64,000 bases of DNA from Minisyncoccota bacterium (lineage in GTDB: Bacteria; Patescibacteriota; Minisyncoccia; Phycocordibacterales; JABAAK01). The notes beneath the pieces are model-generated. The model saw nothing but the letters and a program-made list of their open reading frames with translations, was not told where the DNA came from and made no database searches. The translations under genes were made by a program, and so were the position numbers. This document shows, in pieces, positions 3,383 through 47,739 of the stretch (its first letter is position 1; every line of letters starts with the position of its first letter). Where the stretch lies: positions 594,026 to 658,025 of the forward strand of contig OY282360.1 of assembly GCA_958295675.1 (NCBI GenBank), given 5' to 3'.

Positions 3383-3550
3383 ATGTACATATATTTTTAT
3401 ATACTAAAAATAAAATATGTCAACTTACTGGTGCACTGTACAACCCTATATCACACTCTTTGCAAAGAGCATAACTTGTGCTACACTACAAGTCAGGTGA
3501 TCATTGCAAAAGGATCATCAACACTCACACCACCAGCCAAGGAGCTTGGG

Positions 3551-13876: not shown

Positions 13877-13957
13877 TACAATATAAACATCCCGACAGAC
13901 ACTGTATACTAAGAGTGTGCGTGATACAATTATCGCATTTCACACTGCTATATTACA

Positions 13958-15700: not shown

Positions 15701-15705
15701 GCGGG

Positions 15706-17544: not shown

Positions 17545-17548
17545 CACT

Positions 17549-19435: not shown

Positions 19436-19457
19436 TAAGTACTGAACACTTTTCCGC

Positions 19458-33006: not shown

Positions 33007-33169
33007 CCAGCAATATAAAAGAAATAATACTTGACAAGAAAAACTATATTATTTTATAAAAATAATATTGCCAGTACACATATATAATTGTATCGTATGT
33101 GGTATTATATAAATGGATGGTGTTACTGACACCTTGAACACTCAAACCAGACGGCAGGAGGAAAAAGCA

Positions 33170-33724
33170 ATGGCTTGCCGAATTACATGCATCCTTTTCC
33201 TTTCTTTCTTCTTCATCATCAGTTGCTCAACAACTGAAAACCGTGTCCGTGATGTGGAAAACCGTATCCGTGATGTGGAGAAGGAAGCAGAAAAGATAAT
33301 GGAGAACATAGCAATGGACATGGACTTCATAACAGAAACCTTTTGTAGGAACAAGGGGTTTCCGCAACACGACGCTTCAATAACGCTCGGTAGAAATGGC
33401 ATGATTATCAAAAACACTGATTTTCATGTCAATGGCAATATCTACCTTTGTGGGGATGATGCACTCGTCACGATAAAGGGGACACTGCAGGTACAACGCA
33501 TTTACCTGATTGGCAAACGCGTACGAGTGCAAGCAGAACAATTCATTCTGAGTGCACCGATTAGTCGATCGGTGTTTGTCGTTGAAGGCAGCGATGCCAT
33601 GATCATAACCGCTGATCAATTAACAGATCCGGCGGTATTACAAGCATGGCAAGAAAAATCTCCAAGACGTTATGGCGTCAACAACATCAAAATGAGACGA
33701 AAGTTCGTTCATTTCAACAGGTAG
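33170..33724 (+). CDS. Putative lipoprotein with short ENRVRDVE repeats
   Basis: Strong SD GGAGG. N-terminus MACRITCILFLSFFFIISCSTT, lipobox-like IISC. Bidirectional terminator downstream. Confidence 0.45.
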   Translation: MACRITCILFLSFFFIISCSTTENRVRDVENRIRDVEKEAEKIMENIAMDMDFITETFCRNKGFPQHDASITLGRNGMIIKNTDFHVNGNIYLCGDDALVTIKGTLQVQRIYLIGKRVRVQAEQFILSAPISRSVFVVEGSDAMIITADQLTDPAVLQAWQEKSPRRYGVNNIKMRRKFVHFNR

Positions 33725-33737
33725 AAGAATTCGCATA

Positions 33738-33780
33738 ACCCCCTTTTTTTACTTCAAGTGAGAAAAGGGGGGTTCTTTTG
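33738..33780. terminator. Bidirectional hairpin terminator (AACCCCCTTTTTTT...AAAAGGGGGGTT plus T-run)
   Basis: G/C-rich stem flanked by T/A runs on both sides. Sits between the lipoprotein gene (+) and the tRNA cluster (-). Confidence 0.5.
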
Positions 33781-33787
33781 TATCAAA

Positions 33788-33870
33788 GAAAACAGAGGAC
33801 TCGAACCTCCATGGGTTGCCCCACCGTCTCCTAAGACCGGCGCGTCTACCCGTGCCGTCAATCTTTGATT
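33788..33870 (-). pseudogene. tRNA-Leu-derived pseudo-tRNA fragment
   Basis: About 57 nt (part of the D-arm, anticodon arm, variable arm and T-arm) is near-identical to the adjacent tRNA-Leu(TAG). There is no complementary acceptor stem and the D-stem pairing is broken. Confidence 0.35.
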
Positions 33871-33910
33871 GATGCTGACAAGCAGTCGCCACAGGTGGCG
33901 GAAGTATCAG

Positions 33911-33992
33911 GTGCCGAGGAGAGGACTCGAACCTCCATGGGTTGCCCCACCGGTTCCTAAGACCGGCGCGTCTACCAATTCCGCCACCTCGG
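33911..33992 (-). tRNA. tRNA-Leu (anticodon TAG), long variable arm
   Basis: GCCGAGGTGGCGGAATTGGTAGACGC...CCGGTCTTAGGAACCGG...GGAGGTTCGAGTCCTC...CCTCGGCA. Anticodon loop CTTAGGA. Confidence 0.85.
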
Positions 33993-33997
33993 CATAG

Positions 33998-34070
33998 TCC
34001 GCCCACTAGGATTCGAACCTAGGACCCACCGGTTAAGAGCCGGTTGCTCTACCAACTGAGCTATGGGCGG
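33998..34070 (-). tRNA. tRNA-Lys (anticodon CTT)
   Basis: CCGCCCATAGCTCAGTTGGTAGAGC...ACCGGCTCTTAACCGGT...CTAGGTTCGAATCCTAG...TGGGCGGA. Anticodon loop CTCTTAA. Confidence 0.8.
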
Positions 34071-34244
34071 TAAGCACAGTAATACTATACAATAGAGCAC
34101 ATAAAAAATAAAAAAGATTTAAAAACTGAGTGTATTACAAAATCTAACCTATACACAAACTATACAATCACTCAATATTAAATCGTATGCATCCATCCAT
34201 TTAGCACTGAAAAACAGTTACCACGAAACGACAGGATCGCCGAG

Positions 34245-34327
34245 TGCCGGAGGCGGGAATCGAACCCGCACACCCCGAGGGTACACGATTTTAAGTCGTG
34301 AGCGTCTACCAATTCCGCCACTCCGGC
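34245..34327 (-). tRNA. tRNA-Leu (anticodon TAA), long variable arm
   Basis: GCCGGAGTGGCGGAATTGGTAGACGC...CACGACTTAAAATCGTG...GCGGGTTCGATTCCCGC...CTCCGGCA. Confidence 0.85.
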
Positions 34328-34397
34328 TTTATAAAATACTATAACACTTTGTACGAATCATATAGAATATATAAACTTACTTTCGGTTCTTTTAGAT

Positions 34398-34441
34398 TCT
34401 AAAAAAACAAACCCCACAGGAGCGAACTCCTGTGGGGGTTT
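34398..34441 (-). terminator. Rho-independent terminator downstream of secreted paralog A1
   Basis: AAACCCCACAGG..CCTGTGGGGGTTT hairpin with T-run on the minus strand. Confidence 0.55.
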
Positions 34442-34462
34442 GGGTTTGGTGAAGGCGACGAC

Positions 34463-35194
34463 CTACTCCGACGTGTTGAAGAACACATAGCCGGGGTTGG
34501 GTACACCATCAAGTGCCGCGGCTGCCCTGTTGGCAAGATCTCGCTCTGCAAGAGTCGCATCAACCTGAGCGGCAAGCATGGCGAGTCGCTCTTGATCAAG
34601 CCGCGCCATCTCAAGATTGGCGCCGTTGTCAAAGTCAGCCGAAACAGGGTCCTCCTGCTTGTGCGGGAAAGATTGCCCTTGGTCGGCACCGGTCGTCACA
34701 TCACCTACAGACCTGGCAACATGAGCTGCGAGAGCCCGCTCACCGGTGTTCTCAAGCAGCGCACTAGCGTTGATCTTGTCTCCGCCAACAATGTGCACTC
34801 CCGGAGGAGTGTCGAAGAGATCTTCTTCGGCAACAGACCGACGACCGTCAATCCACTCGATGGTCGCTACCCGAAGGGCATGGTTCCAACCGCGCGTTCC
34901 AGGGCGAACCCGGTACTTGGAGTCACTCAGATACGTACTCCAAGTCGCGGTGACATCACGAGCACTCACCCGATCCTGCGGACCAAGTTGCCGATTGCTG
35001 CCGGTCAGCGCGTAGATCGCGTTGGCGGTTTCCCGCGTGATCTTCGAAGAGCCGGACGGCACCTTGGAATCGAAAGAGACCGCGAGCTCGGTGTTGAGGG
35101 CAGAGATCGTTTGTGCCTTTCCGTAGTCCCCTTGCCCCGCAAAAGCGGTAGCACCGAAGAGAACGGCGATGAAAAGGAAAAGTAGTTTGCGCAT
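34463..35194 (-). CDS. Secreted protein, island family A (paralog A1)
   Basis: SD AAGGAG. Signal peptide MRKLLFLFIAVLFGATAFAGQ. Shares the IxGGDxIN...LENTGERALAAH...TTGADQ module with the other three paralogs. High GC. Confidence 0.6.
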   Translation of the reverse strand: MRKLLFLFIAVLFGATAFAGQGDYGKAQTISALNTELAVSFDSKVPSGSSKITRETANAIYALTGSNRQLGPQDRVSARDVTATWSTYLSDSKYRVRPGTRGWNHALRVATIEWIDGRRSVAEEDLFDTPPGVHIVGGDKINASALLENTGERALAAHVARSVGDVTTGADQGQSFPHKQEDPVSADFDNGANLEMARLDQERLAMLAAQVDATLAERDLANRAAAALDGVPNPGYVFFNTSE

Positions 35195-35559
35195 TTCAGC
35201 ACTCCTTTTGTTTACGGGGTAGGTTAAGTAAAACGGCTGAGTGAATCACTCTTCCGCTCTGTTTGGTAGATTAGAGAGATGTTACACACACGGTGTTGAA
35301 CTCCCAACCCTGCCCAAATCTACTGTGTAGTATAGAGAAAAAAATACTCTTGTCAAGACCACCCAAAGAATAGACAATAATAGATTATTATTTTATAATA
35401 AAACACACCTATACACACGATAAAATATGTGGTGTAGTGTATGGAATAGCATATACATAAAAAATCAATCCTCTATGAAAGTAAACTTCCATAGAGGATT
35501 GTGAGATCTCCTACTCCGCCGGTGCATCACCAGCAGGCATAGAACCACCGACTGCACGA
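35171..35559. repeat. 389-bp junction cassette, copy 1: 3' tail of gene B, terminator, AT-rich promoter region, SD, and first ~8 codons of gene A1
   Basis: Essentially identical to 36070-36456. Confidence 0.8.
35456..35501 (-). terminator. Rho-independent terminator inside junction cassette copy 1
   Basis: CAATCCTCTATG..CATAGAGGATTG 12-bp stem plus T-run on the minus strand, just after the gene B stop. Confidence 0.6.
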
Positions 35560-36092
35560 GCAACCGGATTGGTGCCGCCCAGTTCCCGCATCATGTCCCC
35601 GGCGGGGAAACATTGAGGCGTGCGCACGCTGCGATTGACGAGGAATTCAAAGTACCGCCGAGCCGTATCAAGTCTGGCCAAATCGGCACCACCCTCTATC
35701 AACTGCACAAACTCCTCAGCGCGCTTCTGCAGCACAAGCGGAGGAATCTCCGTGCCGCTGAGACAGGCCTTCACATCCTCGGTACTGGCATTTGCCATCC
35801 ACCGGGCATAGGCATCAAGCCCATCGTCAACGCGCTTGTAGATCGTGATCGCCCCACCGGAGTTCACGACGGCACCGAAGACGGCGTCATCTCCCACATT
35901 GCGAGCGGTGCCGTCGATTTCGGACCCTTGAACGATTTCCGCGCTGCCGCCGCGTTTTGCAACGGATTCGACCATCTTCGCCGCATCTGCGCTTTCCAGA
36001 ACGAACTGGAAACTGACAGTCGGTTCAGCAACCGCAGCAGTGCCAATGCCGAGAGAGAGAACGGCGGTGAAAAGGAAAAGTAGTTTGCGCAT
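35511..36092 (-). CDS. Secreted protein, island gene B. Shares its signal-peptide start and its GGSMPAGDAPAE C-terminal tail with paralog A2 via the cassette
   Basis: Signal peptide MRKLLFLFTAVLSLGIGTAAVA. Unique ~160-aa body. The 5' and 3' ends lie inside the repeated cassettes. Confidence 0.55.
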   Translation of the reverse strand: MRKLLFLFTAVLSLGIGTAAVAEPTVSFQFVLESADAAKMVESVAKRGGSAEIVQGSEIDGTARNVGDDAVFGAVVNSGGAITIYKRVDDGLDAYARWMANASTEDVKACLSGTEIPPLVLQKRAEEFVQLIEGGADLARLDTARRYFEFLVNRSVRTPQCFPAGDMMRELGGTNPVARAVGGSMPAGDAPAE

Positions 36093-36456
36093 TTCAGCAC
36101 TCCTTTTGTTTACGGGGTAGGTTAAGTAAAACGGCTGAGTGAATCACTCTTCCGCTCTGTTTGGTAGATTAGAGAGATGTTACACACACGGTGTTGAACT
36201 CCCAACCCTGCCCAAATCTACTGTGTAGTATAGAGAAAAAAATACTCTTGTCAAGACCACCCAAAGAATAGACAATAATAGATTATTATTTTATAATAAA
36301 ACACACCTATACACACGATAAAATATGTGGTGTAGTGTATGGAATAGCATATACATAAAAAATCAATCCTCTATGAAAGTAAACTTCCATAGAGGATTGT
36401 GAGATCTCCTACTCCGCCGGTGCATCACCAGCAGGCATAGAACCACCGGTCGTCAT
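36070..36456. repeat. 389-bp junction cassette, copy 2
   Basis: Near-identical to 35171-35559. Contains the 3' tail of A2, a terminator, a promoter region and the 5' start of gene B. Confidence 0.8.
36354..36399 (-). terminator. Rho-independent terminator inside junction cassette copy 2
   Basis: Same 12-bp hairpin and T-run as copy 1. Confidence 0.6.
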
Positions 36457-36948
36457 GTCATCTGCAGACCTGAGAACATGAGCTGCGAGAGCCCGCTCAC
36501 CGGTGTTCTCAACCCGCGCAGTAGGGTTGATCTTGTCTCCGCCAACAATGTGCAATCCCGGAGGAGTGTCGAAGAGATCTTCTTCGGCAACAGACCGACG
36601 ACCGTCAATCCACTCGATGGTCGCTACCCGAAGGGCATGGTTCCAACCGCGCGTTCCAGGGCGAACCCGGTACTTGGAGTCACTCAGATACGTACTCCAA
36701 GTCGCGGTGACATCACGAGCACTCACCCGATCCTGCGGACCAAGTTGCCGATTGCTGCCGGTCAGCGCGTAGATCGCGTTGGCGGTTTCCCGCGTGATCT
36801 TCGAAGAGCCGGACGGCACCTTGGAATCGAAAGAGACCGCGAGCTCGGTGTTGAGGGCAGAGATCGTTTGTGCCTTTCCGTAGTCCCCTTGCCCCGCAAA
36901 AGCGGTAGCACCGAAGAGAACGGCGATGAAAAGAATTACATTACGCAT
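36409..36948 (-). CDS. Secreted protein, island family A (paralog A2); chimera of the A1 body with the gene B C-terminal tail
   Basis: Residues ~8-150 identical to A1; DNA 36470-36925 near-identical to 34715-35170. The C-terminus switches to ...TTGGSMPAGDAPAE, the same tail as gene B. Own SD AAGGAG. Confidence 0.55.
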   Translation of the reverse strand: MRNVILFIAVLFGATAFAGQGDYGKAQTISALNTELAVSFDSKVPSGSSKITRETANAIYALTGSNRQLGPQDRVSARDVTATWSTYLSDSKYRVRPGTRGWNHALRVATIEWIDGRRSVAEEDLFDTPPGLHIVGGDKINPTARVENTGERALAAHVLRSADDMTTGGSMPAGDAPAE

Positions 36949-37085
36949 GTATGTCTCCTTGTAAGTTAGTTAATAAGGATGGAAGGGTCTCAAAGTATGG
37001 ATGAGTACTACCCTTCAACATCCAACCCTAAAAAGATTTTAGCAAATAAAATATGAATTGTCAACTACAGTAGTATATAAATTTC

Positions 37086-37131
37086 AAAAAGACAAAAATA
37101 AACCCTGTGGGATGTGTATCCCACAGGGTTT
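37086..37131 (-). terminator. Rho-independent terminator downstream of paralog A3
   Basis: AAACCCTGTGGGAT..ATCCCACAGGGTTT hairpin plus T-run on the minus strand. Confidence 0.55.
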
Positions 37132-37143
37132 AACAACCAACCA

Positions 37144-38376
37144 CTAGCGATCGCTCTCGCCGCAGTAAACGACTGAATCTACCCGTTCACCATCAGAGTT
37201 AGTATACGATCTTGTACACAAACGCTGTGTGTAAACAGATTCCCTCCTCATCGTCATAGGGTTAAAATCGCTTGCTACACTGATGTCAACCTTACACGCC
37301 TTCGGATTACTTTCAACAACGAGTCCCACAACTGTGGAGTCGTCGTTTATGTTAAGTGCCTGCATCTGATCTACTGAAACGGAGTAAGCGCTCCCACAGA
37401 CACGAATCGGATTTTTCCGAAGATCACCGATAAAGCGACTCAAGGACATCTGATCAGTCCAACGTATATACAGTCGACATTGTTTTTCTTCTGTATTGAC
37501 AAGCGCACCGATGACCTTACCGTTGTTGCCTCTATTAGCGATAACGCTATCGTTCATGACAACATTGTAAGAGTCCCGACAAAATTCAATCAATGGATTG
37601 TTGACGGAGGGTTTGCGACTGATTTCCGCTACAGCTGCAACAACAGCACTCTCACCATCATTTGCAACAATGGTGTTTGCTATACTGTGCCCGCCAACAA
37701 TGATCAAATGAGATCCACTCTCTGAATCAGTAAGTGAACTTTTAGCAGACAAGATGTGTTCTAGCACAGCATCAATCCCAACATCACCACCAAGTCCATC
37801 AAAAACTGAAGTTCTCTTAGGCAGATATGTAGGTTGAGCATCAGAACCTGATCGCGGCTGATCAGCACCAGTCGTCACATCTCCAGCCCTGAAAATATGA
37901 GCTGCGAGAGCCCGCTCACCGGTGTTCTCAAGCTGCGCAGTAGAGTTGATCCGATCTCCGCCAATAATGGTCAGTTTTGGAGGGGGTTTGAGGAGATCTG
38001 CTTCAGCAGTAGCGTGAAAACTCATCGCCCATTGCACGATGGCCCTACGGGCGTCGGAGTCCAGTCGCCTGGATCCAGGATTCACATCCGTGAACCCCTG
38101 ATTGCGAAGGAAGGAAGTCAAAAGAGAAAATGTGTCCTCTTTTCGGAACCGCTGATCACTAGTCAACGGTTCCATACCCGCAAGGGTACGGACAGCATTC
38201 GCTGTTTCACGGCTGACAACGGGAGACCCTGCCTGAACAGACGGATCCACGAACTCAGACAGTGCTGTGTTGAGGACGCTTATCGCTCCTCGATTGCCAA
38301 CATCGTTAGCAACTGCGGCAGGACCGCTGAGAGCCATAGCGAATGCTACGGCGAAAGAGAGAATTGCTTTACGCAT
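37144..38376 (-). CDS. Secreted protein, island family A (paralog A3), with an internally duplicated GG-x-I-x-T...G-E-x-A module and a Cys-containing C-terminal domain
   Basis: SD GGAGG, 9 nt before the ATG at 38376. Signal peptide MRKAILSFAVAFAMALSGPAAVA. Motifs LTIIGGDRINSTAQLENTGERALAAHIF and LIIVGGHSIANTIVANDGESAVVAAV. Confidence 0.55.
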   Translation of the reverse strand: MRKAILSFAVAFAMALSGPAAVANDVGNRGAISVLNTALSEFVDPSVQAGSPVVSRETANAVRTLAGMEPLTSDQRFRKEDTFSLLTSFLRNQGFTDVNPGSRRLDSDARRAIVQWAMSFHATAEADLLKPPPKLTIIGGDRINSTAQLENTGERALAAHIFRAGDVTTGADQPRSGSDAQPTYLPKRTSVFDGLGGDVGIDAVLEHILSAKSSLTDSESGSHLIIVGGHSIANTIVANDGESAVVAAVAEISRKPSVNNPLIEFCRDSYNVVMNDSVIANRGNNGKVIGALVNTEEKQCRLYIRWTDQMSLSRFIGDLRKNPIRVCGSAYSVSVDQMQALNINDDSTVVGLVVESNPKACKVDISVASDFNPMTMRRESVYTQRLCTRSYTNSDGERVDSVVYCGESDR

Positions 38377-38535
38377 TTGTTGCTCCTCCAATAAAAACCA
38401 AATTTCCACATGTAAGATGGAAATCCCTATTTATATAATAACACTTTATTTGTAAAAGTCAAATAATAAAAAAGAGAGCGCTGCTTGCATATTTCAGCAA
38501 ACAACGCTCTTGAGAAGTCCGGCTAGACAGGTTGT

Positions 38536-39522
38536 CTAAATCGAAGCTTGCCGAAGCAGAGGCGCAGACGGCACACCTCTCAGTCCAAGTGTCTTCAAAA
38601 AGTCAAGAGGAATACCGGCGAACAAAAAACTTCCCGGATTCAGGTAGTTATCTTCCAAGCGTCCGCCGCCTGATCTCTCAGCTCTGTGTTCCCATCCCTC
38701 TATGACATACGGAATGGTGAGACAGTAGTCAAACGCTATGTCCCACTCCACATTCTGCAGATTTGTCACGCAAGTCCCGGAATCTACCCGCTCGTACCCG
38801 TCAACAGGACCGGAGATCGCTCGACGAATGACAGGGTTATCTCCACCGCTAAATGCAGCAAGGTACTTCTGCGCAAGACGATCCCTCTCTTCCATACCTG
38901 GTTTGGCAAAGAACATTTCGTAGTTCCGTCCTGCTCTTACCACCTTCTGATGCCACTTCAAGACGACGCATCTATAGGCATGCCTATAGTCATCCGTCAG
39001 CGGATTACTCACAATTGGCCTCCGAAAACCAGAAGATGTTGAGTACCATCCTTGAGAAGATGTATCAAGGGAAAGGTCAACACGAACAATCTCCGGACAA
39101 GCCGGTGGCATACCAATCGGTTGCAACCCTACATCCTCTAAAACAGCTGCTGCTGGTACAACTTCTGCCAAAGGAATGTCTTTCGGAAGAGGTGGGAGTT
39201 GGAGTGAAGGTGGAGTAACGGCAACGGTGTGATGCTCACGCACCACATCAAACTGATTGGCGAACAGCATGATCACCAACAGAACCAGACCAGTGATCAC
39301 CGCAATGACCACTGACTTCCGATTGCGTTCCCACCAAGTCAGATGACGGGGCCGATACGGTTGCCGTCGTCGGTTTTGGTGTTGGTTTCTACGACCACCA
39401 CCAGGTCTGACGACAATTTGGGGGGGTCTGGTATATGCCTTGTACACCACACACCCCAAGCCCACTACTGCAAGTGTCACCAATAGAAGCACTACGATGA
39501 CGACAATTTGAAAAAAATCCAT
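38536..39522 (-). CDS. Two-TM membrane protein with an Arg-rich cytoplasmic loop and a ~250-aa extracytoplasmic domain
   Basis: Strong SD AAGGAGG. TM1 IVVIVVLLLVTLAVVGLGCVV. Loop RPGGGRRNQHQNRRRQPYRPR. TM2 VVIAVITGLVLLVIMLF. Confidence 0.5.
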   Translation of the reverse strand: MDFFQIVVIVVLLLVTLAVVGLGCVVYKAYTRPPQIVVRPGGGRRNQHQNRRRQPYRPRHLTWWERNRKSVVIAVITGLVLLVIMLFANQFDVVREHHTVAVTPPSLQLPPLPKDIPLAEVVPAAAVLEDVGLQPIGMPPACPEIVRVDLSLDTSSQGWYSTSSGFRRPIVSNPLTDDYRHAYRCVVLKWHQKVVRAGRNYEMFFAKPGMEERDRLAQKYLAAFSGGDNPVIRRAISGPVDGYERVDSGTCVTNLQNVEWDIAFDYCLTIPYVIEGWEHRAERSGGGRLEDNYLNPGSFLFAGIPLDFLKTLGLRGVPSAPLLRQASI

Positions 39523-39651
39523 GTGCTTTCCTCCTTATGAAACAAAACAGATTTCCAAATATAGTATACAATAAAATAAAAAATAATGCAAGTATTGCCC
39601 TTCTCCGACCTCATTTTAACATTGATTTCCGCTTAAAGCTAATTCTGTACT

Positions 39652-40290
39652 CTATTCATCCGTCCTTTTTATCCATTCATCAATTAGGCTATTCTTTGTT
39701 GAAGGATCAGAGTCTTTATACTGTTCAGATATCTGACTCAATTGCGCAATTGCAGTACTTTGCTGTGCAGGTGATAAACTACGCAAATGAGTAATTGCAG
39801 CACTTTGGTGTGCTGAAGATAGACTATTCCAATGTGTAACGGAACTTCCAAGATGAGCAAGTGAACCTGGTACTTGGTGGACAACCGAACCAGCAGCAGG
39901 AGATCCACGAGGCAGGCGTAAAGATTCAATATTGGTATTTCCTGCGTTTCCGGGACCACCACTACCTGAACCGAGTAAAATAAGTCCTAAAAAGTATACA
40001 AGACCCCAAATGCTGGTCAGGACAAAAATGGCAAGCAGTCCCCAAAATATCTTCTTTTTTGCTTCATCTAAACCCTCTTTACCTCCTCCGGTATTCAAAA
40101 TAAAGGTCGCAAGATTCCAAAAGAAAAAAAGAAAGGCACAACCAACCGCAATTATAACCAGCAAATTTACAATGTTTATAAAACTAGAAAGAATATTAAT
40201 AATCCTGCCCACTTCCGCAGCGGCGGTCTGCGCAGATGCAATAGGTGCTGCTAGTATGCCGATACAAGAGAGTACAATATACGATGCCAT
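39652..40290 (-). CDS. Pilin-like small membrane protein P1 (VirB2/TrbC-like layout) with a Ser/His/Leu-rich repetitive C-terminal extension
   Basis: Signal peptide MASYIVLSCIGILAAPIASAQT. TM FLFFFWNLATFIL. Loop NTGGGKEGLDEAKKK. TM IFWGLLAIFVLTSIWGLVYF. Paralogous to P3. Confidence 0.5.
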   Translation of the reverse strand: MASYIVLSCIGILAAPIASAQTAAAEVGRIINILSSFINIVNLLVIIAVGCAFLFFFWNLATFILNTGGGKEGLDEAKKKIFWGLLAIFVLTSIWGLVYFLGLILLGSGSGGPGNAGNTNIESLRLPRGSPAAGSVVHQVPGSLAHLGSSVTHWNSLSSAHQSAAITHLRSLSPAQQSTAIAQLSQISEQYKDSDPSTKNSLIDEWIKRTDE

Positions 40291-40394
40291 ATACGAGAAG
40301 TATACTATATAGACATAACAAGAATGTTGGTTATAAACAAAAAATTATGACCGTAACAGTGGGATAAACCACTGCTACGGTCATGGAATGTGCG

Positions 40395-41261
40395 CTAAAG
40401 CGCAACAAGCTGATACAGGTCAGATGTCATCACGATGGGTTGTCCGCCGCGCAGCAATGCAGTGCACGCGCGAGAGTAGACATTCCCTCCGTCCGTCTGT
40501 GCCGGCAGGTGAGAAATACAATCACGAACCGTGATCTCCTCATCACCCATCACAATGCTGCCAGCAACAGAAGGCATCTCGGCAAGGTTGTATGCGAGTG
40601 ATGCGTTGTATGCGCACCACGTTGCTGCAGGATACACACGAACACCGCCGCGCCTGAGATCAACAACATGCTGAGCACTTGGCGGTTGGCTTGCATACCG
40701 ATCGCAAGCGTTTTCCGACGCGCCAAACATCGTCGCAACCGGAGCTCCGACGAAATCAGCCACATCGTCCCGCTGCTGGTAGGTGAAAGCACCAACCAAC
40801 ACAAGAACGGCACCGGTGGTGGCCCAGCTAACGCGTGGCCACTGACCGAAAACACGGCGAACTACGCCGGTTACGCCGGAAACAGCACCTCGCACAGCAC
40901 GGCGAACTACGCCGGCTACGCGGGAAACAGTACCTCGCACAGCACTCCACACCTTCCCGGAAGCAGTGGCGACACCGCTGCCGAAACGGGAAAACAGACC
41001 GGGCTGCTGCTCTTGAGCGGCGGCGTCTACTGCGGCCGTTGCCGTTGCGGTCTGCGGCTGCGGATCTTGAGCACCCGCTGCTGCGGGCTGCTGCTCTTGA
41101 GCGTCTACTGCGGCCGTTGCGGTCTGCTCGGGCTGCTGCTCTTGAGCGTCTACTGCAGCCGTTGCGGTCTGCTCGGGCTGCTGCTCTTGATCGGTGTCGG
41201 CATCTGCTGGCAAAAACTTCCCTTGCGCATCGCGTCGCTGACCGTTACCATTTTCACTCAT
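40395..41261 (-). CDS. Repeat-containing membrane protein: acidic QQPEQTATAAVDA repeats, a basic VRGxVS repeat region, one TM helix, and a Cys-containing extracytoplasmic domain
   Basis: Very GC-rich ORF. 45-bp tandem DNA repeats encode the EQQPEQTATAAVDAQ units. Confidence 0.5.
   Translation of the reverse strand: MSENGNGQRRDAQGKFLPADADTDQEQQPEQTATAAVDAQEQQPEQTATAAVDAQEQQPAAAGAQDPQPQTATATAAVDAAAQEQQPGLFSRFGSGVATASGKVWSAVRGTVSRVAGVVRRAVRGAVSGVTGVVRRVFGQWPRVSWATTGAVLVLVGAFTYQQRDDVADFVGAPVATMFGASENACDRYASQPPSAQHVVDLRRGGVRVYPAATWCAYNASLAYNLAEMPSVAGSIVMGDEEITVRDCISHLPAQTDGGNVYSRACTALLRGGQPIVMTSDLYQLVAL
41010..41215. repeat. 45-bp coding tandem repeat, about 3.5-4.5 copies (VNTR-like)
   Basis: GGGCTGCTGCTCTTGAGCGTCTACTGC[G/A]GCCGTTGCGGTCTGCTC recurs head-to-tail with minor variants. 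Confidence 0.7.
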
Positions 41262-41464
41262 CGCTTTCTCCTTCGGTTAAATGGAAATGAACCTGACTCT
41301 ACAAATAAAGCCAGAACCAGTACACAAGATACCATAAACAATCAAAACACGCAACTATACAAGAAATATTGTTTAATATACTGTATATTAAACAATATTA
41401 TAACGAAAATATGCAGTATTTATAGGATAATTTTACTATTTTCCTGATTGACTACCTCAATGTG

Positions 41465-41779
41465 CTACCTCAAAAATTGATACTCAGCAAACTGTATGTG
41501 CTCCTTTTTATTCAACTGCTGATCCGACTGAGATAAGCGGGCAACAAAGGAAAAAAGGGTATAAATTGAGAATATAATAAAAATACCAAGAATAATGATG
41601 CTCAAATTCTTGAACATACCGCCCCGTTTTTCCGCGGCATCAGCATTGGCGACAAATCGAACTGCAGTCACAATCAGCAGCAACAAGGCAATGAATGCCA
41701 TAGCGGCAATGAGCGGATCTACGATATTGTTAAACAAACTGTTTGCAACACCGCTTGCTGTTACTGCATAGACAATCAT
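41465..41779 (-). CDS. Pilin-like small membrane protein P2
   Basis: 104 aa. Leader, TM IAAMAFIALLLLIVTAV, loop RFVANADAAEKRGGMFKN, TM LSIIILGIFIIFSIYTLF. Confidence 0.45.
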   Translation of the reverse strand: MIVYAVTASGVANSLFNNIVDPLIAAMAFIALLLLIVTAVRFVANADAAEKRGGMFKNLSIIILGIFIIFSIYTLFSFVARLSQSDQQLNKKEHIQFAEYQFLR

Positions 41780-41835
41780 ACAGTAGTATAGTATACAAGA
41801 TTACAAAAAATAGAAAACAATTATGGTGTTTATGT

Positions 41836-42273
41836 CTACTTAGTAGTGTTTCCTTTTTGATTAAATGTTACACCAGGCACTTTAATCTCATTTATATTTG
41901 CATCAGTACCTGCACCAACACCAAAGATAGAACGCACAAATGTAATAAGACCCCATAGCGAAGTTATCACGACCATAGCAAGAACCCCCCACAACATATT
42001 TGCTTTTGCTTTTGCTTTTGCATCTTCATCACTCTTCAAAACAAACATTGCAAGATTAAAAAAGAAAAACAAAAAGGCAAGTGACACAACAACAATGGTT
42101 GATGTGCCGACAAGACCGCCGACAGCACCGACACTATCGGTAAGCTGATCCAAAGGATTCTCAGTATCAACCTTCGGCGTTTGAGCAAGAACACTTGTCA
42201 TGCCAAGAACCGCAGTAAGCCCAACGGCAAATAATAAAGTACTAACTGACTGAATAGATTGTGATAGTTTCAT
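41836..42273 (-). CDS. Pilin-like small membrane protein P3
   Basis: Signal peptide MKLSQSIQSVSTLLFAVGLTAVLGMTSVLAQT. TM FLFFFFNLAMFVL. Loop KSDEDAKAKAKAN. TM MLWGVLAMVVITSLWGLITF. Confidence 0.5.
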   Translation of the reverse strand: MKLSQSIQSVSTLLFAVGLTAVLGMTSVLAQTPKVDTENPLDQLTDSVGAVGGLVGTSTIVVVSLAFLFFFFNLAMFVLKSDEDAKAKAKANMLWGVLAMVVITSLWGLITFVRSIFGVGAGTDANINEIKVPGVTFNQKGNTTK

Positions 42274-42398
42274 ATACTATGGTAATAAAGTAAGTAATTA
42301 TTTTCTTTTCTCAGGTAATCGGATACTGTAAGAACACTGTTAGTATACTATTTCGCCATACACACAAAAAAATACTGTGGATAACTTCTGATTGTACT

Positions 42399-42779
42399 TT
42401 ATGCGGAAAAGAGGATGCGCAATACCGCTATAATTCCCCACAGCGTGAAAACCAGTAACAAAATAATGACCGGATACCACAACCGCTTCACTGCCAACTC
42501 AGCCATATTTTTACTGCCGCCATGCGTCTCTTTGATGTAGACAACGATACCATACACAAAAACCAAAAATAACACCGTTATCGCCAGTGGAATCAGCGTG
42601 CCGCCAACAACTTTGATAATCGTATCAACAAGTTCTCTCAACGATAGTTTTTTAAAAGGGAAAAAAGAGGAGTCAGCAGCATACGATACCAACGGCACAA
42701 CAAGCAGAACCGCAGAGGACACAACACCGACTAGCGGTGCCCATCTCCATGTCCATTGATTGCTTCCCATGCACTTCAT
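42399..42779 (-). CDS. Pilin-like small membrane protein P4
   Basis: Signal peptide. TM LIPLAITVLFLVFVYGIVVYI. Loop KETHGGSKNMAELAVKRL. TM WYPVIILLLVFTLWGIIAVL. 4-nt overlap with P5. Confidence 0.45.
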   Translation of the reverse strand: MKCMGSNQWTWRWAPLVGVVSSAVLLVVPLVSYAADSSFFPFKKLSLRELVDTIIKVVGGTLIPLAITVLFLVFVYGIVVYIKETHGGSKNMAELAVKRLWYPVIILLLVFTLWGIIAVLRILFSA

Positions 42780-43261
42780 ATAATGTTATGAGTACCGGAA
42801 GATACGCTGATGAGTGGATTATCGGGACCATTGTCATTATATAACGATGTCGCTTCGGGTTCGCTGTCCTTCAGCACCTGATTAACCGTGTTTTGTATTA
42901 CACTCAGAATGCCTTTTATGCCTAATACAATAAACAGACCGATAAAAGCAATGACAAGGGACCTTTTTAATTCAGCAAATTTTTCCGGCTTGGACGCACC
43001 TGCCAAGACCATCTGAAAACCAATATACACAATTGCAACCGTCATAATCGGTATAAGGATGAGTGTAACAGCATCTAATATGCGCAAGAGAAGTTCTGTC
43101 AAACTGTTAGATGTGATAGGGTTACATAAAATTTTTCCTGTTTCACATCCGGTTTCCGCAACAGCAGGTGTTTCCGCAACAGCAGGTATAGCGTAAAGCA
43201 TAAAAACAACCGAGGTTATACAAAGAACACAGTACGCGGTTAGCGATGATATGCGTTTCAT
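42776..43261 (-). CDS. Pilin-like small membrane protein P5
   Basis: Signal peptide MKRISSLTAYCVLCITSVVFMLYAIPAVAE. Cys pair. TM LILIPIMTVAIVYIGFQMVL. Loop AGASKPEKFAELKRS. TM LVIAFIGLFIVLGIKGIL. Confidence 0.45.
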   Translation of the reverse strand: MKRISSLTAYCVLCITSVVFMLYAIPAVAETPAVAETGCETGKILCNPITSNSLTELLLRILDAVTLILIPIMTVAIVYIGFQMVLAGASKPEKFAELKRSLVIAFIGLFIVLGIKGILSVIQNTVNQVLKDSEPEATSLYNDNGPDNPLISVSSGTHNII

Positions 43262-43278
43262 ACATCATGCAGTATACA

Positions 43279-44541
43279 TCACCGAAACAGATTCAAGACA
43301 GTTTTTGCGCCGGTTTCCGCGGTCTGTGTTCCGACCACAACTCCCTGAAGAGTTTGCAACAGAGTTTCTAGTTCCTCTGAAGTCAAATACACACTTCTGC
43401 TTGAGAACAAGGAATCAATAAAAACTCGTTCAGTTGCTGTTGATTCATTGTCCGGATAGTACCATTTCACTGCCGGCGGCAGAGAGAACAGTTCGGAAAT
43501 ATCATTATCTTTATCATACAAAACACCGAGCATATCAAGCAATACCGCCAATGCCGCCTCCGGTGCCCTGCTCCGCTTCGGAACCGCGAACGCGTAGAGT
43601 GTTGACGGTGTTACTGCTATGCCATTCCGGTCAAATTGCGGCAACGGTGCGACCCGAACAGGAATATTCGGATTTGCGCGCTGCAGTTCATGAAATTCGC
43701 TGATATAGCCGGGATACAGAAAAAGGTTGCCGCCCGTGAACATATCACGAGCATCGGCATGCGCGACACTCCAGGTGTATACCGACGAACGGGGATGAGC
43801 GAAACTGGCATAAAACCTAAGAATGTCCCTCGCTGAACGCTCCGTCAAACCGATATCCGACTCCCGCACCTGCAGTATGAGCGCGGCAAAAAGATCCGCA
43901 GCATGGCGATAATTGCCATATGCGCCGAGCGGTATCAATGCCTGCGATGTATCACGGTACCGTTCGTTAACCTTCAAAAACGAACCGGCTGACAACTGTG
44001 ACCACTCGGTCGGCAATGCGCGAATACCGTTCCGCAATCGCATATTCTCATTGTAATAAAGCACCATCGCATCCGAGAAAAACGGTATGGCAACATAACC
44101 GTCATTGGGACGAATAAACAAATTTGCCGGCTGAATAAAGGTTTGCTCGTACCGCGCTAAGGGAAAGTAAGAAAACGGAACGGTCTGCAAGGTATCCTCA
44201 AGAGCAAAAATTGTATGGTGGTCAATGAGGAGCAGATCCGGCTGTCTGCCGACCGCGATTGCTCCTATGTACTCATCCTGTATGGTATCAGGATTCTTTT
44301 CAACATATCTGACATTCCCGTACAGCCGATCAGAAAAATTGCTTAAACGCCGAGCAATCGGAGCTATCTCACGAATATCAATGGTACCCCACACTAAAAT
44401 ATCCACCGTCTGAGTCCGTGTGGATTGATCATCTGCTGCTCTTTTTTTTAAAAAACCGTATGCCGCCAAACTCCCGAATCCGACAAGAATAAACACACCG
44501 AAAACAACATACAGTATGAGTTGAAAACTTTTTGCCTCCAT
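43279..44541 (-). CDS. N-terminally membrane-anchored extracellular solute-binding-like protein (SBP family 1-like)
   Basis: TM anchor then ~390 aa with periplasmic-binding-protein-like segments. No cognate ABC permease or ATPase is adjacent. Confidence 0.45.
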   Translation of the reverse strand: MEAKSFQLILYVVFGVFILVGFGSLAAYGFLKKRAADDQSTRTQTVDILVWGTIDIREIAPIARRLSNFSDRLYGNVRYVEKNPDTIQDEYIGAIAVGRQPDLLLIDHHTIFALEDTLQTVPFSYFPLARYEQTFIQPANLFIRPNDGYVAIPFFSDAMVLYYNENMRLRNGIRALPTEWSQLSAGSFLKVNERYRDTSQALIPLGAYGNYRHAADLFAALILQVRESDIGLTERSARDILRFYASFAHPRSSVYTWSVAHADARDMFTGGNLFLYPGYISEFHELQRANPNIPVRVAPLPQFDRNGIAVTPSTLYAFAVPKRSRAPEAALAVLLDMLGVLYDKDNDISELFSLPPAVKWYYPDNESTATERVFIDSLFSSRSVYLTSEELETLLQTLQGVVVGTQTAETGAKTVLNLFR

Positions 44542-44554
44542 AGAACTTGCGCCC

Positions 44555-46993
44555 CTACATGTGGGTGCTTGCAGTCAGTATATCATCTCCTTTCAGCTTC
44601 ATCACCGAAACTCCCTGCGTTTGCCGCCCGAGCTGCGAAATCTCGGCAACACCCATGCGCACCATCTGGCCGTTCTTTGACATGGTAATAATCTCGCTCT
44701 CAGTATCACTCAGAATATGCGCGCCGACCAGCCGCCCCGTCCTCGCCGTAACCGAAGCGGCTTTTACGCCAGCTCCGCCGCGTTTTTGCACTTTAAACGC
44801 ACTGATACCGGTCTGCTTTCCATACCCTTTCTCACTGAGTGTGAGCAGGCGGGCGGTCGTCCGCAGATGCTCCTCAACAACGAGCGCACCGATAACGGCG
44901 TCGTCCTTGCCAAGCCGAATGCCGCGCACACCTCGTGCCGTCCGTCCGGAGGGACGCACATCCTTTGCGGCAAAACGAATTGCCTTACCCTCTCTGGTGG
45001 CGATTACAATAGTGTCATTATTGGTGCAAAACATGGTATCCACCAACTGATCATCCTTCTCAAGCGTTACAGCGATGAGACCGGTTTTTCGTATGTTCTT
45101 AAACTGATCAGTCGCGACTTTTTTAACCGTTCCGTGTTTGGTCACAAAAAATAAGTATGTATTCTTTGCCGCATCTGTAGCGACAGGCACAACAGAAGTA
45201 ACTCGCTCATCGCCGTCCATTGAAATGAAATTCACCAGCGCGCGTCCTTTGCCGGTCCGTTTTGCCTCGGGTATCTCATATGCTTTCAGTTGATACACCT
45301 TACCCTTGTTTGTCAGAAAATAAAGTGTGTCATGAGAACTGGCACTTATAGAAATATTGGTAAAATCTTCTTCTTTCAGCTCCGCGCCTTTCGTGCCGAC
45401 GCCGCCGCGCCGTTGCCGTTTATATTCATCATGCGTGGTGCGTTTCACATACCCGCCGTCGGTAACCATCACAATACTCTGCTTTTCCGGAATGAGATCC
45501 TCATCGGCGACCGAATTCTGCCCCTGACTGACAATTTTGGTGCGGCGGTCATCCCCAAAGAGTTTCTGCGCTTCTTCTATTCCCTTTTTTACCTCATCAT
45601 CTATCTTCTTTTTGCTTTTCAGCACACCTTCCAACCGTTCAATTGTTTTTTTCAGTTCGGCAAGTTCATCCTCCACCTTCTGTCGTTCAAGACCCGCAAG
45701 CTTTGACAGCCGCATTTCAAGAATAGCATTCGCCTGCACCTCTGAAAATTTAAACTCTTTCATCAGCGCTTTGCGCGCGTCGCTCACTTCCCGCGATTTC
45801 CTGATAAGTGCGATAATTGTATCTATATGATCAAGTGCTTTCTTCAATCCTTCAACGATATGCGCCCGTTCCATAGCTCTTCCGAGATCAAATTTAGTTG
45901 CCCGCTCAATAATAACGCGGCGATGGTCAATATACGCCTGTAGCAACTGATGCAGAGTCAGTGTCTGCGGCACACCATCAAGCAGTCCGACTAAATTATA
46001 ATGATAGGTCTCCTCAAGCTGTGTATGCTTATACAGCACATTCTGCACCCGTTGCGGCTGCGCGGCCGGCTTCAGATCAACAACCACACGGATGTCATCA
46101 GTTGACTCATCCCGCAGGTCTTTTATCCCTTCTAACTTTTTGTTCCGCACCAGCTCGCCTATCTTCTCAATTAAACGCGCCTTATTCACCCGGTACGGCA
46201 TGGAACTGATGATTAAACTAACGCCTTTCTTATCTTCAACAATTTCTACCTCACCCCGCACGACCACACCGCCTTTACCGGTCATGTAGGCCTGTGCAAT
46301 CGCCTTTTTGTCATACGCAATACCGCCTAACGGGAAATCAGGACCCTTGATGAACTGAAGTAAATCCTCAGTGGTCGCGTCAGGGTTCTCTATCAAATGT
46401 CGCAATGCTCCGGCAATCTCATTCAAGTTATGCGGCGGGATGTCGGTCGCCATGCCGACAGCAATACCGAGCGTGCCGTTCAGCAGCAGATTGGGCAGCT
46501 TCGCCGGCAGCACTGTCGGTTCCTTCAGTGTATTTTCATAGTTCGGTATAAATTCAACGGTTTCTTTATCAATATCCTCAAGCATTTTTTCAGCAATACT
46601 GGACATCTTTGCTTCAGTATACCGGGGTGCAGCGGGCGGATCGCCGTCAATGGAACCGAAATTTCCCTGTCCCGTGATAAGCGGGTACCGGGTGAAAAAC
46701 TCCTGACTCATCCTCGCCATCGCTTCATACACCGACTGATCGCCGTGCGGATGATATTTACCGAGTGTTTCACCGACCACGGTTGATGATTTTCTTGTTT
46801 TTGCCGACGGACGGAGACCCATGCCTAGCATTGCGTACAGAATACGCCGCTGCACCGGTTTAAGTCCGTCACGCACATCAGGAAGCGCGCGTGAAGTAAT
46901 AACTGACATCGCATAATCTAAATACGCGCTCCGCATCTCCTCGGTGATGTCTTTATGCACAATACTTGAACCGTCACTGATAGTTTCAGCCAT
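44555..46993 (-). CDS. gyrA: DNA gyrase subunit A
   Basis: YLDYAMSVI...[21 protein letters not shown]. Active-site Tyr region. C-terminal beta-pinwheel repeats. The ATG at 46993 (MAETISDG) was chosen by alignment to GyrA N-termini. Confidence 0.9.
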
Positions 46994-47085
46994 ATAATCC
47001 GCAGTATAACATACAACAAAGACACAAAAAGATATGGTGATAAAAAAACGCATCCGCTGTTCGCGAATGCGTAAGTGCTGACACA

Positions 47086-47739
47086 TCACGGTACGACATA
47101 CCGATTAAGTATCTCCGTGGCAACATCAAGTGAGGACCGCACCGCACCGGTGCTGTCAAGCATGTTCATCATGACGACAGGTGCCGGATCCATAAAGTCG
47201 CAGACACACAACATACTGTATCCGCGCACCACCGCATCAAGATCATACTCAAAACCGCTGCGCGCATCGCGCCTGTCAATGCGGGAATTGAGCACATCAA
47301 GCGGCATACCGCAAAGAACGATATACCGTGGCAACAAACCGTACTTTCGGATCAGAACACGCTGCTCCCGCTGAATCAGGTCAATAACCGCGTCATTGCG
47401 TTCTCGTTTTGAGTACCGCAAGTACTGATACACCAGTGTGGAGATTAAAAAACGATCAAGAATAACCGTTTTTTGTTCTCGCAACGCAGGGACAATGATT
47501 TCCTCAGCGGAAAGCGCAAAGTCGGCACAAAAGAGGTGCGTGAGAGCGTATGGATCGGTGTCAGTGCTGTCAAGAATGATGTCACGCAGTCGCTGACCTG
47601 TACCGGTCGCGCCCGGCGCGCGGACACAAACCGCTTCCAAACCCATGTCACGCATCATTTCCGACAACTCTCTAACAACAGTTGTTTTTCCAATTCCGTC
47701 GGGACCTTCAATCGCCAAAACATTTCTGTTTTCAGTCAT
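47086..47739 (-). CDS. tmk: Thymidylate kinase
   Basis: [14 protein letters not shown]-loop, DRF motif, and size of 217 aa. Confidence 0.8.

Follow-up and report, generated by a model that had tools for sequence, protein, structure and literature searches.

A gyrA-linked SBP and pilin gene array adjoins a hypervariable region of orphan genes in a Paceibacteria genome

Introduction

Paceibacteria are among the most abundant uncultured bacteria, and to our knowledge almost nothing is known of how they contact their hosts. We analyzed a 64,000-nt stretch of a small Patescibacteria chromosome (assembly GCA_958295675.1, contig OY282360.1, positions 594,026 to 658,025; called the window below; GC content 0.460) in which a block of genes for predicted membrane and exported proteins lies between gyrA and a tRNA cluster. 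An earlier note on this DNA had described the whole block, from 34.4 to 44.5 kb, as an acquired genomic island at the tRNA cluster that forms one self-contained appendage module. Our analysis favors, with moderate confidence, a composite of two adjoining parts: an ancestral array of a solute-binding protein (SBP)-fold gene and five VirB2-like pilin genes, and a recombination-driven hypervariable region that encodes candidate surface proteins.

Gene content of the block

Twelve open reading frames (ORFs) lie between 34463 and 44541, all on the minus strand, and the block ends 13 nt from gyrA; in both respects the earlier note was accurate. Secretion and topology were assigned from hydropathy and the positive-inside rule. 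From gyrA outward, the features are as follows.

44555..47089, minus strand: gyrA, the anchor of conserved synteny
43279..44541, minus strand: SBP-fold protein, 420 aa, predicted to be N-terminally membrane-anchored; starts 13 nt past the gyrA stop
42776..43261, minus strand: pil161, head-of-array VirB2/TrbC-like protein with a predicted signal peptide and two transmembrane (TM) helices
42399..42779, minus strand: pil126, VirB2-like; 4-nt overlap (ATGA) with pil161
41836..42273, minus strand: pil145, VirB2-like paralogue
41465..41779, minus strand: pil104, VirB2-like, two predicted TM helices and no signal peptide
40395..41261, minus strand: rep288, predicted bitopic protein that interrupts the pilin array; weak TM segment, outer domain with four Cys
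39652..40290, minus strand: pil212, VirB2-like with a C-terminal extension of ~100 aa; first gene inside the hypervariable region
38536..39522, minus strand: tm2_328, orphan; predicted TM segments at 6-24 and 70-88, outer C-terminal domain of ~240 aa
37144..38376, minus strand: secD, the longest sec product (410 aa, ATG at 38376); promoter 38462-38435, terminator 37132-37099
36409..36948, minus strand: secC, 179 aa, a chimera of a secA-type N-terminal 490 nt and a secB-type C-terminal tail
35511..36092, minus strand: secB, 193 aa, the second cassette type; promoter 36254-36227, terminator 35501-35466
35158..35550, minus strand: repeated recombination unit, with a second copy at 36056-36448; 393 nt, 99.7% identity
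34463..35194, minus strand: secA, 243 aa, a full-length A-type cassette; promoter 35356-35329, terminator 34437-34412
33794..34327, minus strand: tRNA-Leu(taa), tRNA-Lys(ctt), tRNA-Leu(tag) and a degenerate tRNA copy
33113..33724, plus strand: orf203, putative lipoprotein with a candidate lipobox (...IISC, read from the sequence), at the far edge of the region

The block had been said to encode only proteins with a signal peptide or TM helix. Hydropathy agrees for 11 of the 12 products; rep288 has only a marginal 16-residue core. Scans of Pfam, NCBIfam, PHROGs and PADLOC found no integrase, ATPase or enzyme domain in the block proteins, as the earlier note had reported, and returned no match for secA-D, tm2_328 or rep288. 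That note also spoke of four paralogous secreted proteins. This description suits secA, secC and secD, which share an N-domain at 41-47% identity, but secB is not a true paralogue. Its overlap with the family consists of the signal peptide and 5' region and a short motif, and its C-terminal tail is common to secC.

An SBP-fold protein and an array of VirB2-like pilins

The earlier description of an anchored SBP-like protein and five small VirB2/TrbC-like proteins was borne out by profile searches. The 420-aa protein matches Pfam SBP_bac_8 (E 6.3e-8, 33.2 bits against a cut-off of 27) and, over residues 83-415, the structure of SmoF in the PDB (7nbz, E 3.7e-9). Hydropathy gives it one N-terminal TM segment. 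No permease or ATPase gene stands beside the SBP gene in the window or in the gene-order maps of 48 loci from relatives.

Among the pilin-like proteins, pil161 exceeds the PF18895 gathering threshold (40 bits against a cut-off of 26.6, E 4.2e-10) and also matches PF04956 (E 3.9e-5). Its 20 orthologues matched PF18895 in every case and PF04956 in 17. We built a pilin profile from 242 homologues of other genomes, with the window excluded, and it recognized all five array proteins (E 2e-10 to 2e-23). The individual values were 5e-17 for pil126 (PF18895 just 0.03), 3e-22 for pil145 (PF18895 1.7e-4), 2e-10 for pil104 (PF18895 6e-4) and 2e-23 for pil212 (PF18895 2.7e-5). Sub-threshold matches to NCBIfam Mbov_0395, a pilin-like conjugal transfer protein of monoderm elements, also occur in the array (pil145, 3.3e-7). 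Hydropathy detects three hydrophobic segments in four of the proteins, read as a signal peptide and a two-helix hairpin, and two segments without a signal peptide in pil104, which is 97% identical to its copy in a sister genome (L081, described below).

Pairwise identity among the array paralogues does not exceed 38% and is mostly undetectable, and the pil161-type subfamily occupies array position 1 or 2 in 47 of the 49 best-matching genes. This fixed head position and low mutual identity argue that the array consists of old, specialized paralogues rather than a recent expansion. The genes nearest gyrA are tightly packed, with 13 nt between gyrA and the SBP gene, 17 nt between the SBP gene and pil161, and then the 4-nt overlap; from gyrA to pil126 there is no strong terminator. 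We conclude from the spacing and the lack of a terminator that gyrA, the SBP gene, pil161 and pil126 are probably co-transcribed. The true start of gyrA is probably near 46993, as the gene call in the sister genome begins at residue 33 of the window ORF.

A sixth PF18895 pilin-like gene lies outside the block, at 23853-24332 on the minus strand (E 1e-8). Its neighbor encodes a 125-aa protein with an SxHxxGxAxD-type motif that we read as a putative LAS/M15 peptidoglycan peptidase; the family scan gave no support for this reading. The minus-strand segment 21023-24332 continues with genes for ribosomal proteins L33 and L25, both read from their translations, followed by a 585-aa lytic transglycosylase-like protein with SLT and PG_binding_1 domains. 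The 125-aa and 585-aa proteins could form a VirB1-like wall-opening pair of the same apparatus.

Conservation of the array behind gyrA

We used GyrA as an anchor to fetch 80 loci from species-representative genomes, all of Paceibacterota/Parcubacteria type, and clustered their ORFs. GyrA identity to the window was 80% in the closest locus (L001), 75% in the next (L002) and ~55% in the remainder. An SBP homologue lies directly downstream of gyrA in 62 of the 80 loci, in every case accompanied by pilin genes, and 60 loci contribute a total of 272 pilin-like proteins. For 51 loci, at least 6 kb of sequence was available downstream of gyrA; of these, 48 have both the SBP gene and at least two pilin-like genes behind gyrA; the other three have neither, and no locus is discordant. 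Arrays in relatives contain 3-7 pilin genes, with a median of 5. In 27 of the 44 full-flank loci, the next 10 kb downstream contain a tRNA Leu(tag)/Lys(ctt)/Leu(taa)(/Cys) cluster, which is usually succeeded by rbfA and IF2, just as it is in the window. The ancestral order is gyrA, (methyltransferase), SBP gene, pilin array, short variable slot, tRNA cluster, rbfA and IF2.

The methyltransferase is a class I S-adenosylmethionine (SAM)-dependent enzyme of ~175 aa whose gene separates gyrA from the SBP gene in 47 loci (L005, L009, L016 and others) and is missing from the window, L001, L002 and L081. One of the three relatives that have neither the SBP gene nor pilin genes (L056) encodes, within 13558-21572, a VirD4/TrwB-like coupling protein of 865 aa and several large proteins. 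This segment could represent a genuine integrated conjugative element.

Relatives often have a first array member of 340-740 aa, and in several of them it consists of fn3-like repeats followed by a C-terminal PF18895 hairpin. Examples with fn3/purple-acid-phosphatase-N-like and PF18895 domains, 476-737 aa in length, are the following.

L010, 14502-16715
L070, 15534-17444
L037, 7395-8825

By its domain order, such a protein would be a pilin-type anchor that bears a large extracellular part. The attachment of fn3-like repeats to a PF18895 hairpin thus argues for surface exposure of array members. It also raises the possibility that the PF18895 proteins are hairpin anchors or scaffolds for extracellular domains and that the SBP is a ligand or host receptor, the whole forming a display or sensing module independent of a type IV secretion system (T4SS). 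The C-terminal extension of pil212, the absence of a T4SS ATPase nearby and the embedding of the array among housekeeping genes fit this alternative as well. We nevertheless consider it rather unlikely, since TrbC/VirB2 and the pilin-like conjugal transfer proteins are related to these proteins in sequence, and since the related pilin genes of Southlakia are essential and lie inside a T4SS cluster (PMC10633639).

Arrays of this kind have been described before. A survey of 383 Patescibacteria assemblies reported 441 VirB2 arrays of 2-11 genes with ~25% mutual identity and PF04956 or PF18895 domains (PMC12102498, Microb Genom 2025), and an essential series of pilin genes was found within the T4SS cluster of Southlakia epibionticum (PMC10633639, Cell 2023). 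The window array is a member of this published class of VirB2-like pilin arrays. The strict coupling to an SBP gene and the fixed position after gyrA in Paceibacteria are mentioned in neither paper.

A hypervariable region next to the array

We compared the window to its sister genome, L081 (ENA assembly ERZ19488997), in which the genes from tmk to IF2 stand in the same order. Nucleotide identity is 94.5-95.5% in the flanks, and the 95.5% flank ends at 33175. The hypervariable region extends from 33176 to 41076 (~7.9 kb); its interior is 82-87% identical at the nucleotide level, and the coding sequences of secA-C cannot be aligned, with no DNA-level similarity beyond promoters and terminators. 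The region contains orf203, the tRNAs, secA-D, tm2_328, pil212 and rep288. It therefore reaches beyond the coordinates given in the earlier note, out to orf203, which has no family match.

The gradient is also apparent in the proteins. Amino acid identity between the two genomes is 99.8% for GyrA, 98% for rbfA, 97% for murA, 95.7% for the SBP and 94.6% for IF2 in the backbone, as against 75-78% for tm2_328, 69% for rep288, 67% for pil212, 46% for orf203, 44% for secD and 33-35% for secA-C (35% between secB, for which hydropathy predicts a signal peptide, and the B type of L081) in the interior. Backbone genes have a synonymous divergence (dS) of 0.04-0.2 and the four conserved pilin genes one of 0.14-0.23, compared with 0.32-1.6 in the variable genes (0.375 for pil212, 1.4 for orf203), 3-15 times the flank value. 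The ratio of nonsynonymous to synonymous divergence (dN/dS) is 0.28-0.65 in the variable genes and 0.14 in the SBP gene. Because dS inside the region is far above that of the backbone, the alleles must be much older than the genomes that carry them. Their age points to allelic replacement by recombination or to long-maintained allelic lineages, and not simply to fast adaptive change.

We asked whether the GC-rich genes and repeats could be an assembly artefact or a contaminating chimera of this metagenome-assembled genome. Near-identical repeats of 0.4-1.8 kb and abrupt changes in GC are classic trouble spots for assemblers. However, L081 was assembled independently from another sample and has the same gene order, GC pattern and cassette logic with different sequences, and the GC-rich ORFs are surrounded by promoters, terminators and AT-rich spacers of the kind usual in the host genome. 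An artefact is extremely unlikely.

At 31696-33724, murA (EPSP_synthase family) and orf203 lie between tRNA-Leu(tag) and tRNA-Cys. These two tRNA genes are adjacent in most other Paceibacterota loci, which makes murA/orf203 a second lineage-specific insertion at the tRNA cluster.

Mosaic sec cassettes and other orphan genes

Each sec gene is its own transcription unit, with a near-consensus promoter (e.g. TTGACA-16-TATACT), a leader, a ribosome-binding site and a strong hairpin terminator, and the promoters are conserved between the window genome and L081. Judged by these signals, each sec copy appears to be driven by a promoter of its own. The genes stand in the order D, C, B, A in the window and D, C, A, B, A, B in L081, where a 1812-nt tandem duplication (99.95% identity) produces five small cassettes compared with three in the window. 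Within a genome, the tandem cassettes are 97.8-99.9% identical and vary in copy number.

The cassettes are mosaics of one another. Positions 36444-36933 of secC match 34687-35176 of secA over 490 nt at 97.8%; the first 378 nt are identical, and the 11 mismatches are bunched in the last 112 nt. The 393-nt repeated unit stands upstream of both secA and secB and comprises C-terminal tail codons, a terminator hairpin, a promoter, a ~130-nt 5' leader and signal-peptide codons. secD joins the N-domain common to secA and secC to a Cys-rich C-terminal domain. Unequal crossing-over together with gene conversion would explain why the copies are homogenized and change in number within a genome while diverging deeply between genomes.

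The ~130-nt leader of secA and secB (35195-35325 and 36093-36223, minus strand) opens with the stem UAGAUUUGGG ... CCCAAUCUA. L081 retains this stem despite ~34% amino acid identity in the coding part; with two sequences compared, covariation support is weak.

We considered several devices that generate or switch surface diversity. A diversity-generating retroelement was rejected: the secA/secC mismatches are not adenine-specific, and no reverse transcriptase was present in the scanned ORFs. Phase variation through the promoter T-tract was also dismissed, as the tract differs (T7 vs T6) but the spacer is constant at 16 nt. No recombinase that could act as a switch was found, and no sec copy lacks a complete promoter, ribosome-binding site or terminator. 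The motif IVGGxxINxxAxLENTGExA recalls curlin repeats, but it has no Pfam match, and each protein contains just one or two copies of it.

The sec genes are orphans, present in only two genomes among ~15 billion proteins. No homologue of the sec, tm2 or rep genes occurs in any of the 80 loci, apart from a distant relative of rep288 in L001. Searches of 5.8 billion protein clusters with secD and tm2_328 returned only the query and one relative each, and a sec profile run exhaustively with HMMER against 1.84 billion representatives returned four proteins, all from the window genome and L081. The tm2 and sec profiles found no relatives in Joint Genome Institute (JGI) metagenome contigs or in viral contigs, and blastn against phages and plasmids gave no match.

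tm2_328 and rep288 are predicted membrane proteins. The Arg-rich loop of tm2_328 is likely cytoplasmic by the positive-inside rule. rep288 has a predicted cytoplasmic part with a 15-aa tandem repeat and a basic amphipathic repeat; the underlying 45-nt repeat is present in ~2.5 copies here and in more copies in L081. A distant rep288 homologue lies at L001:20013-20687 on the opposite strand (22% identity, pairwise E 3e-6, GC 0.57), and the pilin genes that flank rep288 in the window are adjacent in L001.

The tRNA cluster and the genomic-island proposal

The earlier note placed the island next to three tRNA genes and a degenerate tRNA-Leu. The three tRNAs are present as described: Leu(tag) at 33910-33993, Lys(ctt) at 33997-34070 and Leu(taa) at 34244-34327. 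The degenerate copy of tRNA-Leu(tag) is also real (33794-33860; 96% identity over 57 nt, acceptor arm destroyed), but the tRNA cluster lies between it and the block. It belongs to a tandem series with a 126-nt period that has 1 copy in the window and 3 in L081 (16173-16507). The 5' acceptor arm has been replaced, and ARAGORN calls the L081 copies tRNAs even though the acceptor stem cannot pair. The copy numbers of the pseudo-tRNA and of the rep288 repeat show the same instability as the cassettes.

An island inserted at these tRNAs is very unlikely. Besides the tRNAs and the partial copy, the proposal can draw on four ORFs with strongly atypical GC and synonymous codon use and on ~6-8 kb that is missing from all relatives but the one sister genome. 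However, the tRNA Leu/Lys cluster is a conserved neighbor in distant relatives, and this ancestral order indicates that the tRNAs are not an integration site for the block. The SBP-pilin half is likewise an ancestral neighbor of gyrA and has background GC (0.453). No integrase or transposase was found in the block, and a blastn-short search of 34401-45000 for a tRNA-derived attachment (att) repeat at the far border gave only chance matches of 11-17 nt. The pseudo-tRNA is a local tandem copy that differs in number between the sister genomes, and the phage, plasmid and viral-contig searches were empty.

Conservation of the block in relatives, which the earlier note had named as evidence against its own proposal, was found for the SBP-pilin half: 41465-44541 is present in 48 of 51 loci. 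The predicted absence from relatives holds for the sec, tm2 and rep genes, which are lacking in the 80 loci and present in L081. What survives of the self-contained island is an accessory segment of ~7.9 kb with other limits, and the pilin/SBP half and the tRNA argument fall away. The segment 33176-41076 looks like a recombination-driven hypervariable surface region and not a mobile element.

Base composition and the contents of the slot

A rise in GC across the whole block had been reported. Measured against a background of 39 genes (GC 0.457 ± 0.030; GC at third codon positions, GC3, 0.460 ± 0.049), no such general rise exists: the block has a GC content of 0.475 vs 0.456 elsewhere, and the half from 39652 to 44541 is at background (0.453). 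The outliers are four of the 12 ORFs, namely secA (0.58), secB (0.59), secC (0.58) and rep288 (0.60), with z = 4.2-4.8 and GC3 of 0.55-0.61. GC is elevated at all three codon positions in these ORFs, and their synonymous codon use is also strongly atypical. The earlier observation that the shift is strongest in the secreted paralogues and rep288 is thus correct for secA-C and rep288 but not for secD, which is average (0.487), as are tm2_328 and the SBP gene. The pilin-like genes are average or lower (0.40-0.45), and every block spacer is AT-rich (0.23-0.36).

The corresponding slot in the next relatives holds different genes. In L001, a gene for a secreted protein and four for type IV pilins lie within the array, and the inverted, distant rep288 homologue is present as well. 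The type IV pilin genes (16543-18767; N-terminal GFTLIELLIV) have a GC content of 0.43, compared with 0.58 for the GC-rich L001 backbone (gyrA GC 0.58, GC3 0.76). The L002 slot encodes a lipoprotein and three others, of which two have signal peptides, at GC 0.50-0.52 vs 0.44. In three lineages (L001, L002 and the window, 0.58-0.60 vs 0.46), slot genes are compositionally atypical for their own backbone, a pattern that supports horizontal exchange among members of the group as a contributor to the unusual GC.

In one version of this idea, homologous recombination in the conserved flanks would recently have introduced secA-C and rep288 from a relative of higher GC in the same bacterial family, and their composition would be that of the donor. 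The GC-rich backbone of L001, its distant rep288 homologue with a GC content of 0.57, the high dS inside the region relative to the flanks, and the atypical slot genes of three lineages are all consistent with import. Yet no sec homologue occurs in L001, in L002 or elsewhere; the spacers within the repeated units are AT-rich like the host and the promoters are conserved between the sister genomes; and both genomes have high-GC cassette genes despite synonymous saturation, which indicates an old, maintained property of the family. Recent import is therefore possible but doubtful. We also regard as unlikely the proposal that the high GC is not foreign but a by-product of GC-biased gene conversion and an Ala/Gly/Arg-rich composition. 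Conversion or duplication tracts that are identical over 378-1812 nt within a genome, the elevation at all three codon positions and the presence of the trait in both sister genomes would suit it. The intergenic parts of the repeated units, however, stay at GC 0.36, rep288 has the highest GC although it is single-copy, and secD has average GC although it belongs to the family.

Interpretation of the composite locus

In the composite reading that we favor, the first unit (41465-44541 plus pil212) is an ancestral, class-wide Paceibacteria cluster in which an anchored SBP-fold protein is followed by five divergent PF18895 paralogues. The paralogues are predicted membrane helical hairpins, usually with a Sec signal peptide, and may serve a host-dependent lifestyle by building or anchoring a filament or display structure at the cell surface. 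The genes for the ATPase and the channel would lie in another part of the genome. The SBP-pilin cluster is best read as part of the core envelope apparatus of Paceibacteria, related by homology to the T4SS-associated pilin arrays that are essential for the epibiotic growth of Saccharibacteria.

The second unit (33176-41076) fills the slot between the array and murA, beyond which lie tRNA-Cys, rbfA and IF2. The sec genes would encode individually transcribed, Sec-exported proteins arranged as mosaic tandem cassettes, with unequal crossing-over and gene conversion keeping the copies nearly identical and changing their number. Alleles could be replaced by recombination, or they could be held by long-term diversifying or frequency-dependent selection on exposed proteins, perhaps for host recognition or for evasion of phage or host. 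The sec cassettes represent a new orphan family that behaves like a classic variable surface-protein locus.

Gene content, synteny, orphan status, cassette structure and the gradient of divergence are observations, whereas secretion, surface exposure, pilus formation and the agent of selection are inferences. Several points weigh against this reading of the two units. The dN/dS never exceeds 1, so positive selection is not demonstrated and relaxed constraint on old alleles is compatible with the data; hypervariability is based on one genome pair; and donor origin and GC-biased gene conversion are both candidate causes of the high GC of four genes. Secretion and topology are predictions from hydropathy. 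Four of the five pilin-like genes score under the Pfam gathering threshold (E 2.7e-5 to 0.03), and a PDB sequence search with the pilin family profile found no match. VirB4, VirB6 and VirD4 were not found in the 64-kb window of this 724-kb genome or among the large ORFs scanned in the array loci of relatives (±10 kb); the suggested link of the array to a T4SS derives from family membership and the literature. AlphaFold2 (AF2) models of secD (4-sequence alignment) and tm2_328 had pLDDT values of 40 and 43 and were uninterpretable. Only residues 30-120 of the secD model were confident, as a predicted helical bundle, and when this low-confidence model was compared with the PDB by Foldseek, the best matches were unrelated proteins (E 0.44).

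The two units might also be functionally joined. The sec, tm2_328 and rep288 products could be the exchangeable, host-recognizing end of the apparatus, as helical-bundle proteins with signal peptides that serve as VirB5-like tip adhesins or secreted substrates and whose alleles are swapped according to host, with the SBP as a dedicated assembly or anchoring factor for the pilin hairpins. This proposal is a long shot: secA-D have no VirB5/TraC match and no Pfam match at E ≤ 0.1, and the secD model gave no fold match. If it is true, this locus determines host range in Paceibacteria and does so in a compact, genetically tractable form.

The fixed, class-wide position of an SBP-fold protein and a five-member array behind gyrA identifies a conserved candidate for a core surface apparatus. 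The turnover of predicted secreted orphan proteins in the adjacent slot between ~95%-identical genomes makes these proteins candidate specificity factors. The locus also corrects a mis-annotation: tRNA adjacency and patchy GC are insufficient to call a mobile island.

Other features of the window

The remainder of the window carries mainly housekeeping genes: 23S rRNA, groES/EL, two RNase J genes, clpB, IF2, murA and gyrA, and also tmk, S1, pth, ftsA, an FtsZ-like gene, a class I tRNA synthetase and sigma-70. The RNase J genes at 15652-19435 are tandem paralogues of 630 and 628 aa, and the first of the pair has no metallo-beta-lactamase domain match in Pfam. The 23S rRNA gene (1-2269, minus strand) covers model positions 1-1948 with 2269 nt, which implies ~320 nt of insertions. 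Insertions are common in the rRNAs of the candidate phyla radiation (CPR). Two ORFs lie upstream of the 23S rRNA gene, at 2665-3324 and 3383-4123, the latter with a GC3 of 0.63.

Comparison with known systems

We compared the locus to systems that it resembles. The SBP-fold protein has the SBP_bac_8/SBP_bac_1 signature of ABC sugar binders such as SmoF (PDB 7nbz) over residues 77-415 and is predicted to be membrane-tethered, as these proteins are in monoderms. Unlike ABC solute-binding proteins, it has no permease or ATPase genes nearby, here or in relatives, and its neighbors are gyrA and pilin-like genes. The array proteins resemble TrbC/VirB2 pilins (PF04956) in their predicted signal peptide and two-helix hairpin, with weak but consistent matches (17 of 20 head-of-array orthologues). 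They differ in that no solved pilin is detectable by sequence, the cell is presumed to be monoderm, no VirB3, VirB4 or VirB6 gene is adjacent, and multiple ancient paralogues take the place of one major pilin.

The VirB2 arrays of Patescibacteria are closer. They are defined as 2-11 pilin genes of low mutual identity, in tandem or with one non-pilin gene between them (PMC12102498), and the window array fits this definition with its five PF18895/PF04956-type genes, one non-pilin interruption (rep288) and identities of at most ~25-38%. It also has no relaxase or coupling protein nearby and belongs to a reduced-genome CPR host, as those arrays do. In contrast to them, it is not beside virB4 but behind gyrA with a co-occurring SBP-fold protein, and most of its members are under the thresholds used in that survey.

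The hypervariable region invites other comparisons. It shares with tRNA-integrated islands the adjacency to tRNAs, a partial tRNA duplicate and some atypical composition, but it lacks an integrase and att repeats, the tRNAs and half of the block are ancestral, and the partial tRNA is a local tandem copy. The vsp, vlp and vsa genes of Mycoplasma are multigene families for variable surface proteins of wall-less bacteria. The sec genes are like them in having a near-identical promoter, leader and signal-peptide region with divergent mature parts, and in their copy-number changes, chimeras and homogenization within a genome. They are unlike them in that secA-D have no lipobox, no site-specific recombinase was found and no on/off switch is evident. 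Free-living microbes have hypervariable islands for the cell surface, HVR2 of SAR11 among them. The cell wall-associated genomic island of Haloquadratum walsbyi (PMC4535781) is similar to the region studied here in its fixed slot, its strain-specific, atypical genes for exposed proteins and its lack of mobility machinery. At 7.9 kb, the region next to the pilin array is much smaller than these islands; it encodes predicted secreted orphan proteins instead of glycosylation or S-layer functions, and it adjoins a pilin array in a bacterium that is likely host-dependent.

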